From an uncultured bacterium (GTDB taxonomy: Bacteria; Patescibacteriota; Microgenomatia; UBA1400; CG1-02-47-37): DNA of 64,000 nt. The notes beneath the pieces were generated by a model. The model did no database searches. It saw nothing but the letters and a program-made list of their open reading frames with translations, and had not been told where the DNA came from. Shown here piece by piece: positions 56,019 through 60,724 of the stretch (position 1 is its first letter; every line of letters begins with the position of its first letter). The stretch is from the NCBI GenBank assembly GCA_963980215.1, contig CAXBYZ010000002.1:1726-65725 (forward strand). The letters are read 5' to 3'. The position numbers and the translations under genes were made by a program.

Positions 56019-56270
56019 CTATATCCCCACAAACACGCTAGCCACATTATCCTTAATCATCACCAGCCCCTTTTTCAACTTAAACACCTTTCTTCTTTTT
56101 GAACCAATATAGACCGTCACCTCATGAGTAACCGGAGTAATAAAGTTGGCATGATCTTCCAAAACATCAAACTCTCCGGTCGGATTGATACTACTAATCC
56201 CCTCACACTTACCCTCATACTCCACTCCCTCTCTGCTAATCACTCTCACTTGCAAACCTTTACTTAACAT
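56019..56270 (-). CDS. atpC: F1 ATP synthase epsilon subunit (short form, beta-sandwich only)
   Basis: 83 aa with [42 protein letters not shown]; it sits immediately after atpD. Confidence 0.65.
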
Positions 56271-57678
56271 TTTTTAAACTCCCAATATTCAATAACTTTT
56301 CTTCATTCACCTCATCCATTTTACCTTCTAAAATCGACTTAACATCTTTAATTGTGTCTTCAAGCCTCACATACTCCCCTTTCCTCCCAGTCTGATCCTC
56401 GGCCACCTTAAAAGGTTGAGTCATGTAATTAGTCAGCCTTATTGCCCGCCGATAAAACAATCTATTCTCACCAGACAACTCCGACTCACCCACCAAAGCC
56501 ACCATCCTCTCCAAAGACTCAGATTTTTTTAACAACTCTTGAGCCTTCAATAAAGCCTGATAATGATCTTCACCCACCCACTCTTTCTTTAAAATTTCTG
56601 AAGATGAACTTAAGATATCCACTGCCGGCAACCGCCCTTGTTGATACACCTCTCGACTCAGTAACACCCTTGAATCCAAGTAGGGCATGGCCGCCTGGAC
56701 CCCTTGATCTAAAATATCATCCGCCGGCACATAAACCGCTTCAATCCCACTCACCGTCGCTTTCTCACTCGATACTAGCCTCTCATGAAAGGCCGCCATC
56801 TCACTCGATAAAGTTGCCTGATAACCATCCTCGGAAGGCATTGTCTTGGTTAACACTCCCAACTCATTTCCCGCCTGAGCGAACCGAAACACGTTATCAA
56901 TAAAAAACAGCACATCTTTCTCTTCTTCGTCTCTAAAGTACTCCATTTGAGTCAATCCAGCAAATGCGGTCAAAAACCTAATGGCCGCATTATCACCCAT
57001 CGGCCCAGCTACTAAAGAAACATCCTTTAAAACTCCCCGATCTTTCAACTCCTCATAAAGCTCTTGCCCCTCCCTCACCCTCTCACCCACCCCAGCAAAC
57101 ACGGCTACACCTTGAGAAGGTCCGTTCTTGAAGCGAAGCTTTGAGGCCGGACCTTGTTGGATAGCGTTTTCTTTTCGCATCGTCACAATGTTATGCATTA
57201 ATTCGTAAAGCAACATCGTCTTACCCACTCCGGCTCCCCCAAACAAACCCATCTTTCCCCCTTTTACCAATGGTGCAAAAAAATCAATTACCTTAATCCC
57301 CGTCTCCCAAATCTGTCTCTCACCAATCCTCTCCGTATATCCAGGAGCTTGTTTGTAAATCAACCTTTTTGACCGAGTTTTAAACGCTTTGCCTCCGTCA
57401 GCCGGTTTACCAAACACATCCATCACTCTTCCCAAGACTTCTTTCCCCACTGGTATCTTTAACCCCTCACCGGTTCTCTTTACCTTAAACCCTTGATGTA
57501 AATAATGCTGGCCTCCCAAGATCAAAGTATAAAACCGCCCTACTGTGCTCGATCCATACACCTGCAACACCACCCCAAAACCTTCCTTTGCCACCAAGAC
57601 TTCATGGATCTCTGGTGGATCACTCTTAAACTCCACTTCCGCTACCCTTCCGGTAACTCCAATAATTTTCCCGATCAT
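56260..57678 (-). CDS. atpD: F1 ATP synthase beta subunit
   Basis: The P-loop GGAGVGKT and Walker [13 protein letters not shown]. It contains an in-frame hairpin element (57119-57153). Confidence 0.9.
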
Positions 57679-58499
57679 GAAAACCTCCTCAAAGCCGCTG
57701 TTCGGCTTAATTGTTTTTTATTTATCTCCCGGCTCCTCAAACTCTTGCTTAATAAATCAAACCGTCTATCTATCTGTTCGATATTATCCAAAGCCTTGTC
57801 TAAGTGAATGATTCTAGAAGCAAATTTAGCCAAGTGAGACTCCCACAACACCTGTTCAAACATTGAGTACAATATCTCCTCTTTAAAGACTCTAACTACT
57901 TCATTTAAGCTTGGTTCATACAAATATTTTACGGTCGGTTGATCTTTTTTCAACTCCCCTAACTTACCAATTAAATCGGTCTCCACCGCTTCCTGTTCCA
58001 CCAAACTCAAAAACTTTCCATGAAAAACTACCACTTTTTCGTACCGTAATAGATACTCCATCAAATCTTTCAGCATTTTTTCCTCCACCCTATCATCAAT
58101 AATTTCAAAGTACTTATATTCATTACTTGGCCACACCCGATCCACCCACTCTCGCCCCACTCGCCCCAACACCACCACTTGAGCCTTGTTCTTTTCCACA
58201 AACTGTCTAAACTCTCCCAAAGTCTTGTTTACAATCTCCCCAAAAAAACCGGCATTAGCCGAAATTAAAACCACCACCATCTTGCCATTATGAGCCATCG
58301 ATAACTTTACTTCTTTATCTTTTTCCGCTCGAACTTCTGAAAACACCTCAGATAAACCTTGCAAAAAGACTCTCCCCTTAACCACTCCATCCCTCACTTC
58401 CTTCATCTTCAAGGCCGCCAACTCCTCATAGACTTCCACCATTTCAGCTAAATCCATCAAACTATCTTGCTCTAACTTAATTTTTTGCTTACTCAACAT
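57675..58499 (-). CDS. atpG: F1 ATP synthase gamma subunit
   Basis: 274 aa; it sits between atpA and atpD, with gamma-like N- and C-terminal helices. Confidence 0.7.
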
Positions 58500-59889
58500 T
58501 TTTTATCAACCTCTTCACTAATTTCTTCTTAATTGTAGATAAATCACTACACCCATCCACTAATTTCTCCACCTTATCAATAAAATCATCATCAATCTTG
58601 ATCTCCTTTTTAGCCGACCATTTTCCTATCAAAATCATCACCCCCAGATAACTAATTACCTTTGAGTCCAAATTCAACCACTGCTCGTTTCTCAAAAACC
58701 TCCACAAACTCTCACCCCTTGATAAAATTCTCTTAAAACTCTCAGACAACTCCGCCCCAAACTTGGTATATCTCTGGGTCTTCTCATACTGAGTAATTAA
58801 ACTCAATAACTCCCGAGATAACTCCCGTCTTAGTGGTGTTTGAGCCTGGCGCCCCACCCTGGTCACCGATAAAAATGGGTTTATGGCCGGCCGAACCCCT
58901 TTAACATACAACTCATTATCAAAATAAACATGACCGTCGGTCATACTCATCAAGTTAGTCGGAATATAACCAGTCAAGTCTCCAGCCTTGGTGTGACAAA
59001 TGGGTAAACAAGAAATACTTCCCTCTTTTTTAGAAAAATTTCCGGCCCTTTCAAGAAGGCTGGAGTGAACATAAAAAATATCACCAGGGTAAGATTCTCG
59101 CCCCGGAAAACTCTGGCCAAGCAAAGCTAGCTCCCGATAAAATTGAGCGTGGGTAGATAAATCGTCCATCACCAAAATAACCCTCTTTCCTCTAGACATA
59201 AAGTACTCAGAAATGGTCATTGCCGCATACGGAGCTTCAAAAATCTCTCCCAAACTATCAGCTGAGCTTGCCGCCACTACCACACATTTTTTTAAGATTT
59301 TAGCTTTCTTTAATCGACTCACCACCGCCATAATTTCCGACTTTCGTTTGCCAATACAAGCATACACCCCGATCGCCCCCCGACTCACTTGAAACTCTAA
59401 AATCTTTAACGCCAAGTCACTCTTACCAGTGGTTCTGTCTCCCACCAACAGCTCCCGCTGGCCCTCACCCATCGGCACCATCAAATCAACCACTGGCACT
59501 CCGGTTTCCAAAGCCTGGCTAATTCTCTCCCTCACTTCAATCCCTGCCGGCTGTACTTTTGTTTCATGACCCTTCATCAAATGAGCTTCATTTTTTGTTC
59601 CCACAATCTTCTCTCCCAATGCATTATAAACTTTTCCTAGTAATTGCTCGTGAGTTCTAAGCTTAAACCTAGATCCTGTTCCGGCTACTTTCGTTCCCAC
59701 CTTGATTGACTCTCGCGAAAAGACCACTGCTTCCGCCCCAGTTTCCTCAATTTCTCTTACCTGACCCCACTGTCCGGACCTAAACTTTAGCACCTCCCCT
59801 ACCACCACTTTTTTTAATCCATTCACCATCACCAACGACTGATTTACCTTAATTACCTCCCCCAAATATCTTTGTTTTGACTCTGTCAT
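58489..59889 (-). CDS. atpA: F1 ATP synthase alpha subunit
   Basis: The P-loop GDRTTGKS with alpha-type length and order. Confidence 0.85.
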   Translation of the reverse strand: MTESKQRYLGEVIKVNQSLVMVNGLKKVVVGEVLKFRSGQWGQVREIEETGAEAVVFSRESIKVGTKVAGTGSRFKLRTHEQLLGKVYNALGEKIVGTKNEAHLMKGHETKVQPAGIEVRERISQALETGVPVVDLMVPMGEGQRELLVGDRTTGKSDLALKILEFQVSRGAIGVYACIGKRKSEIMAVVSRLKKAKILKKCVVVAASSADSLGEIFEAPYAAMTISEYFMSRGKRVILVMDDLSTHAQFYRELALLGQSFPGRESYPGDIFYVHSSLLERAGNFSKKEGSISCLPICHTKAGDLTGYIPTNLMSMTDGHVYFDNELYVKGVRPAINPFLSVTRVGRQAQTPLRRELSRELLSLITQYEKTQRYTKFGAELSESFKRILSRGESLWRFLRNEQWLNLDSKVISYLGVMILIGKWSAKKEIKIDDDFIDKVEKLVDGCSDLSTIKKKLVKRLIKNVE

Positions 59890-59920
59890 AATATTATTTA
59901 ATATATCAATATATAAATTA

Positions 59921-60724
59921 CTAGATCGTTAATATAAAGTAAGCTGCCAGCAAACCTACCCCCATCACTACAGCAGTTAAGATTAAATTTAGTCCCATAC
60001 TAAACTGAATCTTGCCCATAGCCCTAGGATTTCTCCCTACCGACTCGACTCCACTCTTGACCACTTTTCCAAAAAATCCAACTCCCACCGCTACTCCAAC
60101 CGCTGTCACCAAGGCCGCCAATGCATGTCTAAAACCCACTCGAGCTGGACCAGCAATAATCCGTATTTGATTTCTAACTCTATCCACCATGGTTCTGGCC
60201 TCAAGCACTACCGGTCGAATATTTAACTCCACTAACACCTTACTGATCTCTTTTAGGTCTTGAGAATCATAATCTTCCAGAGAAATGCCCAACATCTGAC
60301 CAGATCTAGCCGCCTTCTGGCCCACCCCTGGAACTTCAGAACTAGTAATGTAGTCGCCTTTCTTGATCTCTCCTCCTTGATTAGTCACCTGAACATAGAC
60401 TCTCCCTGAAGTAATAATTGGTCTAGTGTTTAACTCAGTCGTGTTAATTAAAGCTACCGCCGGTGAATCATCAATCACTCCATACATATCCTGAGAATAG
60501 CTTTGCTCACACAAAACCTTGCCAAACTGAGTATCGCAAATTATCAAGCCATCAGCCACTTCCACTAAAGCCTCATTTAACTGAACCTCAACCGCAACCC
60601 CCGGCGCCATCGCCTGTGCCGAACGCACAGAAAAAAGGTCCGTTTTTGAAGGTACTCCTTTAAGGCCGAACCTTAATGGAATTAACAAACAAATAAAAGT
60701 GAGTAAGGCAGTCAGTACTTTCAT
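59921..60724 (-). CDS. Signal-peptide protein with a C-terminal two-helix hairpin resembling an F-type ATPase c-subunit
   Basis: The N-terminal signal MKVLTALLTFICLLIPL. The C-terminal ~65 aa read LVTAVGVAVGVGFFGKVVKSGVESVGRNPRAMGKIQFSMGLNLILTAVVMGVGLLAAYF: a Gly-rich helix, an RNP loop and a second helix without Asp/Glu. It lies immediately upstream of atpA. Confidence 0.35.
   Translation of the reverse strand: MKVLTALLTFICLLIPLRFGLKGVPSKTDLFSVRSAQAMAPGVAVEVQLNEALVEVADGLIICDTQFGKVLCEQSYSQDMYGVIDDSPAVALINTTELNTRPIITSGRVYVQVTNQGGEIKKGDYITSSEVPGVGQKAARSGQMLGISLEDYDSQDLKEISKVLVELNIRPVVLEARTMVDRVRNQIRIIAGPARVGFRHALAALVTAVGVAVGVGFFGKVVKSGVESVGRNPRAMGKIQFSMGLNLILTAVVMGVGLLAAYFILTI

Follow-up and report, generated by a model that had tools for sequence, protein, structure and literature searches.

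The minus strand of a 64,000-nucleotide (nt) stretch from an uncultured bacterium of the Microgenomatia (order UBA1400; contig CAXBYZ010000002.1, positions 1,726 to 65,725), hereafter called the window, carries at 56019-60724 five tightly packed open reading frames (ORFs): a gene that we call X, followed by genes for alpha-, gamma-, beta- and epsilon-like subunits of an F1-ATPase. Our analysis supports the view that the X protein is a homologue of subunit c, and is derived from it. It lacks the ion-binding carboxylate, and carries a signal peptide and a predicted extracellular domain. The window holds the version without b and delta of a gene cluster that is conserved in Microgenomatia, within the Candidate Phyla Radiation (CPR). 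We favour, with somewhat more confidence than doubt, the explanation that this cluster encodes a remodelled, non-chemiosmotic F-type ATPase which conveys ATP-driven motion to the cell surface. The operon and the parts of X are as follows.

59921-60724, minus strand: gene X, an ORF of 267 amino acids (aa), first gene of the F1-like operon.
60611..60724, minus strand: predicted signal peptide, X residues 1-38, with a hydrophobic helix at 2-22 (AlphaFold2) and a conserved A-x-A site.
60215..60604, minus strand: predicted extracellular beta domain, X residues 41-170, with a predicted local distance difference test score (pLDDT) above 90 and fold matches in Foldseek.
59924..60145, minus strand: c-subunit-type helical hairpin, X residues 194-267, with the loop E227-x-x-G230-R231-N232-P233, recognised by profile, hhalign and structure.
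58489-59889, minus strand: alpha-like subunit, 466 aa, assigned by Pfam and NCBIfam and by the motifs GDRTTGKS and SVTRVG.
57675-58499, minus strand: gamma-like central-stalk subunit, 274 aa, Pfam ATP-synt (PF00231), 7.5e-23.
56260-57678, minus strand: beta-like catalytic subunit, 472 aa, assigned by Pfam, NCBIfam and motif conservation.
56019-56270, minus strand: epsilon-like subunit, beta-sandwich domain only, 83 aa, Pfam ATP-synt_DE_N (PF02823), 2.9e-09.

Taken singly, the X sequence gives marginal c-subunit matches in Pfam and NCBIfam (PF00137, E=0.056, 14.1 bits where the gathering score is 24; TIGR01260, E=0.017, 15.1 against 43.95), no match to any other NCBIfam model, and none at all for its ectodomain. 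The family is far more informative. A profile built from the last 72 residues of ten sequences was compared with all PDB sequences, and its 12 best matches were all F-type c subunits, headed by the Spirulina c15 ring (E=9.8e-6). When the family was aligned by hhalign to seven canonical c subunits, a probability of 89.7% was obtained (E=1.8e-6). For the fold search, we used an AlphaFold2 model of X computed from 33 family sequences (mean pLDDT 84.6, about 90 in the hairpin), and excluded a poor model computed from 14 sequences (pLDDT 64.7). With Foldseek, the modelled hairpin superimposed on solved c subunits with a root-mean-square deviation of 1.0-1.6 Å over 66-76 aligned columns (target TM score 0.76-0.91). 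The initial annotation had proposed a c-like hairpin at the C-terminus of X, at residues 200-267, to be checked against PF00137. The hairpin was thereby confirmed, with its limits moved to 194-266, and the homology was supported by the family profiles while the single sequence stayed under the Pfam threshold.

The most conserved stretch of X is the loop of this hairpin, G-V-E-A-x-G-R-N-P-L-A. Its G-R-N-P core is invariant in the 52 sequences of alignment A3, and the more relaxed motif [GAS][RK][NQ]P is present in 182 of 183 family sequences. One family member is labelled 'F0F1-type ATP synthase membrane subunit c' in a JGI record, and the NCBI members are unnamed.

Helix 2 of the hairpin, in which a c subunit binds its ion, was found to be devoid of Asp and Glu, as had been noted at first sight of the sequence; this holds independently of any alignment. 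In both sequence alignments, Ala251 falls at the carboxylate position (D61 in E. coli, E62 in Spirulina). The same is seen across the family: no acidic residue is present between +10 and +30 after GRNP in 181 of 182 members, and the canonical position, +18, is occupied by L, I, V, F or A. A substitution of the carboxylate by N or Q, which had been envisaged, was therefore not found: the position is aliphatic, and the conserved polar residue is placed five positions earlier, at +13 (N in 150 of the 182 members, H in 19, S in 11, Q in 1 and E in 1; N246 in the window). A second conserved polar position, +17, is T in 137 members (T250 in the window). These two are the sole conserved polar residues of helix 2 within the membrane, one helical turn towards the cytoplasm from the carboxylate site.

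With a word-indexed homologue search, only 14 proteins related to X were found and the family seemed rare. An exhaustive HMMER search against 1.84 billion cluster representatives returned 498 matches at E<1e-30, 3,960 at E<1e-10 and 12,925 at E<1e-3, all counted as clusters at 50% identity. When one genome per GTDB species was scanned with the family alignment, at least 440 species genomes proved to encode a relative of X. The count is a minimum, since members with GRNPRA, as in the clade of the window itself, escape the search pattern GRNPLA. Locus maps were drawn for the 80 best of these species loci, with ORFs assigned by phmmer. They come mostly from Amesbacteria, Woesebacteria, Levybacteria, Shapirobacteria and WWE3, several titles of metagenome-assembled genomes among them being evidently mislabelled.

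Gene order in these loci is strikingly constant. Genes for alpha, gamma, beta and epsilon come after X in 64 of the 66 loci that have at least 6.5 kb of downstream sequence; in the two exceptions, gamma is unresolved in the ORF map owing to an oversized beta ORF of 709 aa (L087), or epsilon is undetected (L077). Between X and alpha, 55 of the 66 loci encode a coiled-coil protein with one transmembrane (TM) helix and a protein of 120-240 aa, an arrangement also seen in relatives whose X is about 40% identical. With Pfam OSCP, the latter protein exceeds the gathering score, but its match is confined to the C-terminal portion of the model. Such delta-like members match E. coli AtpH, and some of the b-like proteins match AtpF weakly. 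The common order is thus X-b-delta-alpha-gamma-beta-epsilon, which is the canonical order atpE-F-H-A-G-D-C with X at the place of c. Judged by gene order, the CPR cluster is directly derived from a canonical F1Fo operon.

The remaining 11 of the 66 loci lack b and delta, as does the window. The b/delta counts, like those of the upstream giant gene given below, are lower bounds, because the ORF maps use the most upstream start and single-sequence phmmer. The arrangement of the window, including the giant gene upstream and a leucyl-tRNA synthetase (LeuRS) gene downstream, is present in three independent assemblies, in which X is 75-83% identical. As independent assemblies of relatives share the loss of b and delta, it is not an assembly artefact.

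No gene for subunit a was found within 10 kb of X in any of the 80 species loci, as judged by phmmer matches to E. coli AtpB; this test is insensitive, and is backed by Pfam for a sample of ten neighbours with several TM helices, from WWE3 and others. Among these ten, where a subunit a might have been hidden, the Pfam matches were to ComEC, 7TM_transglut, BacA, ABC-2 and EamA, and one protein was without a match. In the window, a six-frame scan of the 64 kb with E. coli queries and with the b- and delta-like proteins of relatives revealed nothing resembling a, b, c, delta or AtpI, the E. coli-based test being weak for subunit a; with the hairpin profile, X was the sole match. This agrees with the initial observation that atpH, atpF, atpE and atpB are missing upstream of the operon, where a giant plus-strand gene starts instead, at 60870. 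A divergent membrane sector, one of the two possibilities then put forward, is supported by the position of X at the place of atpE, by the loss of the carboxylate across the family and by the lack of subunit a within 10 kb of X in the 80 species loci.

The F1 part is intact. The ORFs were exactly in the order first described, X, atpA, atpG, atpD and a short atpC, and Pfam confirms the four F1 subunits. X and alpha are spaced by 31 nt, and the alpha, gamma, beta and epsilon genes overlap successively by 11, 4 and 11 nt. The alpha- and beta-like proteins match Pfam ATP-synt_ab at 5.7e-66 and 6.1e-56. All four F1 subunits score under the NCBIfam equivalog cut-offs (atpD model, 425.9 versus 462.85; atpA, 354.8 versus 484.45; gamma TIGR01146, 54.8 bits versus 194). 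The alpha-like protein scores about equally with the NCBIfam models for the Mycoplasma gliding ATPase and for atpA, and the FliI/SctN models are also matched by both alpha- and beta-like proteins at 1e-52. The motifs GGAGVGKT, GVGERVREG and YVPADD are kept in beta, and alpha retains the Walker A motif GDRTTGKS and the arginine-finger motif SVTRVG. As read from such motifs, the window subunits have the Walker A, the catalytic Glu and the arginine finger of a catalytic alpha3beta3 head.

Several peculiarities of these subunits were noted. In beta, GESELSGEN replaces DELSEED, and an insertion of about 23 residues (166-188), present in no aligned solved beta, is located after the Walker A helix and before the GVGER catalytic loop. 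The delta/OSCP-binding helix at the N-terminus is missing from the alpha-like protein: residue 9 of this protein is aligned to residue 28 of solved alphas, so that its start corresponds to canonical positions ~20-28. We considered whether the length of the alpha N-terminus tracks the presence of b and delta, and rejected this, as about 154 residues precede Walker A in both groups of loci. The epsilon-like protein lacks the C-terminal inhibitory helices, and its length varies from 78 to 134 aa across the family. All five genes are nevertheless maintained: in a comparison with one relative of window-like arrangement, the proportion of nonsynonymous differences (pN) was 0.14-0.17, versus a saturated proportion of synonymous differences (pS) of about 0.72. 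For X alone, values against the L005 orthologue were 0.17 and 0.74 (saturated). As pN is far under saturated pS, purifying selection acts on all five genes.

The N-terminal part of X goes beyond what is seen in the solved c subunits that its hairpin matched. The initial annotation had recognised a signal peptide followed by a domain of about 190 aa. The signal peptide stands, with its hydrophobic helix and an A-x-A site conserved in alignment A1 (SAQA|MA in the window, AHA|VA in relatives), at which we infer cleavage; the size does not, the folded ectodomain covering residues ~41-170. Given the signal peptide and the topology of a c subunit, with termini outside and loop inside, the mature N-terminal domain of X has to be extracellular. 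Against BFVD, a collection of predicted viral structures, its best Foldseek match was a 'preneck appendage protein' (E=5e-11), and 42 matches at E<=1e-3 included tail proteins and tail fibres. Against PDB, it matched phage capsid decoration or cement proteins, the base of the phi29 head fibre, and a C-terminal fragment of gp12, the tail spike of phi29 (3gqh, 3suc; E~3e-3). Pfam places this gp12 fragment in the class of the Peptidase_G2 IMC (intramolecular chaperone) autoproteolytic cleavage domain (PF11962); a Pfam scan of X itself gave no match to PF11962. From the model, the ectodomain appears to have a fold of the phage pre-neck-appendage, or tail-fibre intramolecular-chaperone (Peptidase_G2-like), type. 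Both phage decoration proteins and the IMC domains of tail fibres assemble as trimers. Unlike the phage domain, which ends a fibre, the X domain is joined to a membrane hairpin, in a protein whose gene is part of an ATPase operon.

Divergently from X, across a short spacer, starts the giant gene.

60870..64000, plus strand: giant surface protein, N-terminal 1043 aa, running off the window, with a MerR/HTH_17 match at aa 9-57 and a TM helix at aa ~75-94.
60725..60869, no strand: divergent intergenic region of 145 bp with promoter-like sites and an inverted repeat, by consensus matches only.

After its TM helix, the giant protein continues as a Thr/Ser/Gly-rich fibre with repeated 'NIGIGTTNP..KL.V.G' motifs; in giants of this kind, the fibre-like repeats extend over thousands of residues. 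It is thus a DNA-binding fold of the HTH_17 type that heads a surface fibre; this could be a membrane-tethered regulator or a protein-protein module. A homologous start, made of helix-turn-helix (HTH) and TM helix, is found divergent from X and within 4 kb upstream of it in at least 56 of 76 species loci, and several of the remaining loci also have large minus-strand ORFs with one TM helix, which single-sequence phmmer did not link.

Two observations connect the giants to X beyond their position. Among large neighbouring ORFs of which a sufficient length is available, the X-ectodomain profile matches near the C-terminal part in seven loci (L025, L033, L057, L073, L084, plus a second ORF of L061 and a downstream ORF of L031; E from 1e-9 to 6e-25), and the giants' domain and that of X probably share the Peptidase_G2/phi29 gp12 fold. 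In L025, the X-type domain overlaps a PF11962 match (27.8 bits versus a gathering score of 25), in a protein that also has FG-GAP repeats. The other observation concerns 14 long members of the X family, of 330-573 aa. Five of the ten that were scanned (P0124, P0128, P0132, P0150 and P0160) have an N-terminal HTH_17 match, one of them above the gathering score, and the long forms inspected consist of HTH_17, a linker and a TM helix, then ectodomain and hairpin. P0150 alone reaches 22.9 bits on PF00137. The same architecture is recognised by eye in the 567-aa X of L067 (7778-9481), a locus with no giant upstream. Because such fusions exist as one polypeptide, the HTH-TM module is tied to X.

In the 145-bp spacer, a promoter-like site for the X operon reads TTGACA-18-CATACT (60762..60733; 10 of 12 consensus positions). 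Its -35 hexamer is contained in an inverted repeat at 60755-60765 / 60782-60792 (TATGTCAAGGT / ACTTGGACATA). Before the giant gene, on the plus strand, a candidate site was read by eye, TTGACA-19 nt-CATAAT. A spacer of 19 nt is typical of MerR-controlled promoters.

How would such a machine work? In the explanation that we favour, X would assemble into a ring like that of c, and its near-invariant cytoplasmic loop would bind the foot of gamma and epsilon as in F1Fo. The enzyme would only hydrolyse ATP and not synthesise it, because it has no ion path; with neither an ion path nor an ion-binding rotor, it would not be chemiosmotic. The task of keeping alpha3beta3 still would fall to b and delta in most lineages. 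Ring rotation, or torque, would be passed to an external crown of X ectodomains, and this crown would act on or with the giant surface fibre, for instance to make contact with a host, to move, or to tension or reset the fibre. Any particular mechanics, whether the fibre is rotated, twisted or reset, merit far less confidence than the general model. In its most specific form, a trans-membrane rotary machine in which F1 spins a carboxylate-less c-ring and ATP hydrolysis rotates, twists or winches the extracellular giant fibre, the proposal is tentative and we rate it as rather doubtful.

A number of points weigh against a non-chemiosmotic, surface-directed ATPase. Ring formation by X, and the binding of gamma and epsilon to it, are what we infer. 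The pair N246 and T250 in helix 2 is conserved and polar. A subunit a, or a second, canonical F1Fo, might be present beyond the DNA that was searched, namely the window and 10 kb around X in 80 species. In the long forms of X, an additional TM helix and a cytoplasmic HTH on each protomer would be awkward in a rotor ring. The X-type domain is present in the giants of some species only, several complete giants having given none in the profile search, and the conserved divergent arrangement could serve regulation alone, through a MerR-type HTH that acts on the shared promoter region. The weakest point for the window itself is that in its clade, and in the 11 of 66 loci without b and delta, no protein was identified that would hold alpha3beta3.

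Other readings were weighed against ours. The ATPase could serve in assembly or export of the giant fibre, with a FliI/FliJ-like head and a ring of X forming a membrane platform that helps the fibre to cross, fold or trimerise. This would account for the matches of alpha and beta to FliI/SctN and for the conserved link to the giant. It would also suit the resemblance of the X ectodomain to the phi29 gp12 fragment and to phage decoration proteins; moreover, mature X starts about where the corresponding domain of the giant comes after a 'DFAEYF' motif, a candidate cleavage site. We regard this reading as unlikely all the same, since gamma, epsilon and mostly the peripheral stalk (b and delta) are kept, which fits rotary coupling and is foreign to known export ATPases, the cluster has no linked export-gate proteins, and the ordinary N-terminal membrane anchor of the giant could be inserted by the Sec pathway. 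Still less probable, in our estimate, is an ion-translocating F1Fo whose subunit a, and perhaps normal c, b and delta, are encoded elsewhere, X being an unusual or auxiliary ring subunit that uses for instance N246/T250. The intact and conserved F1 subunits would suit it, as would the polar residue, N, H, S, Q or E, conserved in helix 2. It conflicts with the lack of an acidic residue in the helix 2 core of all family members but one, with the aliphatic canonical position, with the F1 scores under equivalog cut-offs, and with the lack of subunit a in the window and within 10 kb of X in 80 species, though b and delta were kept in the operon; Fo genes elsewhere would not restore ion coupling to X. 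An ectodomain of 130 aa on each protomer is also unparalleled among the matched solved F-type c subunits (69-89 aa). Finally, the complete genome Ch65, of the order UBA1400 and with the same strand G/C bias, has no means of forming an ion gradient (PMC7143001).

The link to the giant might instead be only regulatory or syntenic, the giant's HTH controlling the shared promoter and the X-ATPase having a separate role at the surface or envelope, for example with the cell wall or a different partner as its target. Regulators of the MerR family are classically divergent from their targets, promoter-like sites and an inverted repeat are present in the spacer, several complete giants have no X-type domain, and about a quarter of the loci have no detectable HTH-giant. 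We nonetheless find this as improbable as an ion-translocating enzyme: a homologous ectodomain is common to X and giants in at least seven species, and HTH_17-TM modules are fused to X in the long forms, which argues for a physical link besides the transcriptional one. As for a decaying remnant of an ATP synthase operon, with X adjacent by chance, the loss of a, b and delta in the window and the divergence of all subunits would be expected. However, the five ORFs are intact with pN well under pS, the catalytic motifs and the invariant GRNP loop are kept, the order is conserved in all but two of 66 loci, and the family counts 498 clusters at the strictest threshold. This reading is already contradicted, and we give it hardly any credit. 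The remodelled, surface-directed ATPase thus remains our preferred explanation.

Compared with canonical F1Fo (atpBEFHAGDC), subunits alpha, beta, gamma and epsilon are homologous and have the catalytic motifs, X keeps the c hairpin and its R-N-P loop, and the b and delta of relatives are homologous and in the same order, c-b-delta-alpha-gamma-beta-epsilon. Unlike canonical F1Fo, the CPR cluster has no gene for subunit a, its c homologue has no ion-binding carboxylate and bears both a signal peptide and an extracellular domain of 130 aa, alpha is without the N-terminal helix for binding delta, delta is recognisable as OSCP in its C-terminal part only, epsilon has no C-terminal helices, the F1 scores are under equivalog cut-offs, and b and delta are missing from the clade of the window.

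The closest functional analogues, by comparison of their descriptions, are the F1-like ATPases of Mycoplasma, which also provide a precedent. The Type 2 F1-like ATPase, the G1-ATPase gliding motor, drives the giant gliding proteins of M. mobile, and Type 3 ('F1-like X0'; MSC_0618-0624 / MMCAP2_0575-0581) is required for the antibody-cleaving MIB-MIP surface system. The Type 3 cluster comprises seven genes, including those for a 12-TM protein and a small cytoplasmic protein; its alpha lacks the N-terminal helix, and its Protein 5 combines a signal peptide and a surface region with two TM helices at the C-terminus (PMC3369863, PMC12994834). Like the CPR cluster, F1-like X0 has a repurposed F1-like head and an alpha without its N-terminal helix in a genome-reduced, host-dependent bacterium, has no normal Fo a or c, and is genetically tied to large surface proteins. 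Protein 5, with two TM helices and a short loop, has the topology of X, the two being compared by description of topology only. The systems differ in that the Mycoplasma Type 3 order is 12-TM protein, small protein, gamma, epsilon, Protein 5, alpha, beta, that most CPR lineages keep b and delta, and that the Mycoplasma hairpin is not reported as c-like. Neither the 12-TM protein nor the small cytoplasmic protein is present in the window operon or in the 80 loci. With the models for Mycoplasma MSC_0618/0619 and MMOB1660/1670, the window proteins reached 247.9 versus 520, 337.7 versus 570, 378.8 versus 600 and 316.7 versus 850 bits, all under the cut-offs. The CPR cluster does not belong to these Mycoplasma families, and is likely of independent origin.

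N-type ATPases (atpDCQRBEFAG) are likewise a second, divergent lineage of F-type operons. They keep subunit a and a c with its carboxylate, they have AtpQ and AtpR, and their gene order is other than X-alpha-gamma-beta-epsilon. The window proteins score 326.5 versus 750.5 and 391.5 versus 752 with the alt_F1F0 models TIGR03324 and TIGR03305. By gene content and model scores, the CPR cluster is not an N-ATPase. Full-text literature searches gave no description of this CPR system, and the ATPase is not discussed in Beam 2020 or Jaffe 2020.

Why CPR bacteria, which have no respiratory chain, retain an F-type ATP synthase is recognised as a puzzle (PMC11665869). For the Microgenomatia, a large class, the cluster suggests an answer that can be tested, namely that the enzyme of this operon has neither an ion path nor an ion-binding rotor. 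A c subunit deprived of its carboxylate and endowed with an extracellular domain, next to an F1 and in most cases a peripheral stalk that were retained, would amount to a natural experiment in which a rotary motor is reused for mechanical work across the membrane, and would add a second case, independent of the Mycoplasma F1-like ATPases. Metabolic reconstructions in which matches to alpha and beta are taken as 'ATP synthase present' would be wrong for these lineages. The link to the giant fibre points to a surface apparatus by which uncultured episymbionts may meet their hosts. If the rotary form of the proposal were true, these ultrasmall cells would contact hosts or move by means of a machine comparable to the flagellar motor but powered by ATP, and the 'F-type ATP synthase' counted in many CPR genomes would not be a bioenergetic enzyme.

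Other genes inserted in or next to the cluster were inspected. A gene of about 565 aa between X and b, considered as a possible accessory ATPase subunit, is a phosphoglycerate mutase by Pfam where examined. In L033, it lies at 10709-12448 (579 aa) and encodes a cofactor-independent enzyme (iPGM_N, 2.2e-75); genes of about 560-590 aa stand at the equivalent spot in some 20 Woesebacteria-type loci, the one scanned being that of L033. This mutase is reminiscent of the phosphoglycerate kinase found within the F1-like ATPase chains of M. mobile, which may be a coincidence. Likewise, a gene of about 800 aa after epsilon, a further candidate for an accessory subunit, is by its sequence motifs a LeuRS where examined.

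In the close relatives L005-L007, and not in the window, X and alpha are separated by an inserted 120-aa gene resembling bAvd and the 23S-rRNA intervening-sequence protein. L006 has an exact repeat of the final 55 nt of X (7974-8028) at 8129-8183, 155 nt downstream, which has the look of an insertion scar. Because of the bAvd-like gene, the presence of a diversity-generating retroelement near X was considered, and rejected: apart from this duplication of the 3' end of X, only internal repeats of the giant gene were found.

Downstream of epsilon, the window has a DUF4143/AAA_14 ATPase gene on the plus strand (54857-56017), which stands between epsilon and the LeuRS gene on the minus strand (52277-54835). 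In relatives, epsilon is directly followed by LeuRS, or by a Y1 transposase and an NYN gene. In L001, genes for an M16 peptidase and a nucleoside-diphosphate kinase come after epsilon; two minus-strand ORFs of the window, 9402-10679 and 8917-9387, resemble these by their N-terminal sequences only, and lie 46 kb away from the operon.

The window also has a marked strand asymmetry. For the order UBA1400 (Chazhemtobacterium, Collierbacteria, Beckwithbacteria), such a disparity between strands has been published as a genome-wide trait (PMC7143001), which suggests that the window derives from this order. Here, the plus strand is richer in C than in G in every 2-kb bin of 1-64000 (GC skew from -0.13 to -0.60), regardless of gene orientation, so that the skew of the coding strand is -0.07 to -0.58 for plus-strand genes and +0.28 to +0.63 for minus-strand genes.

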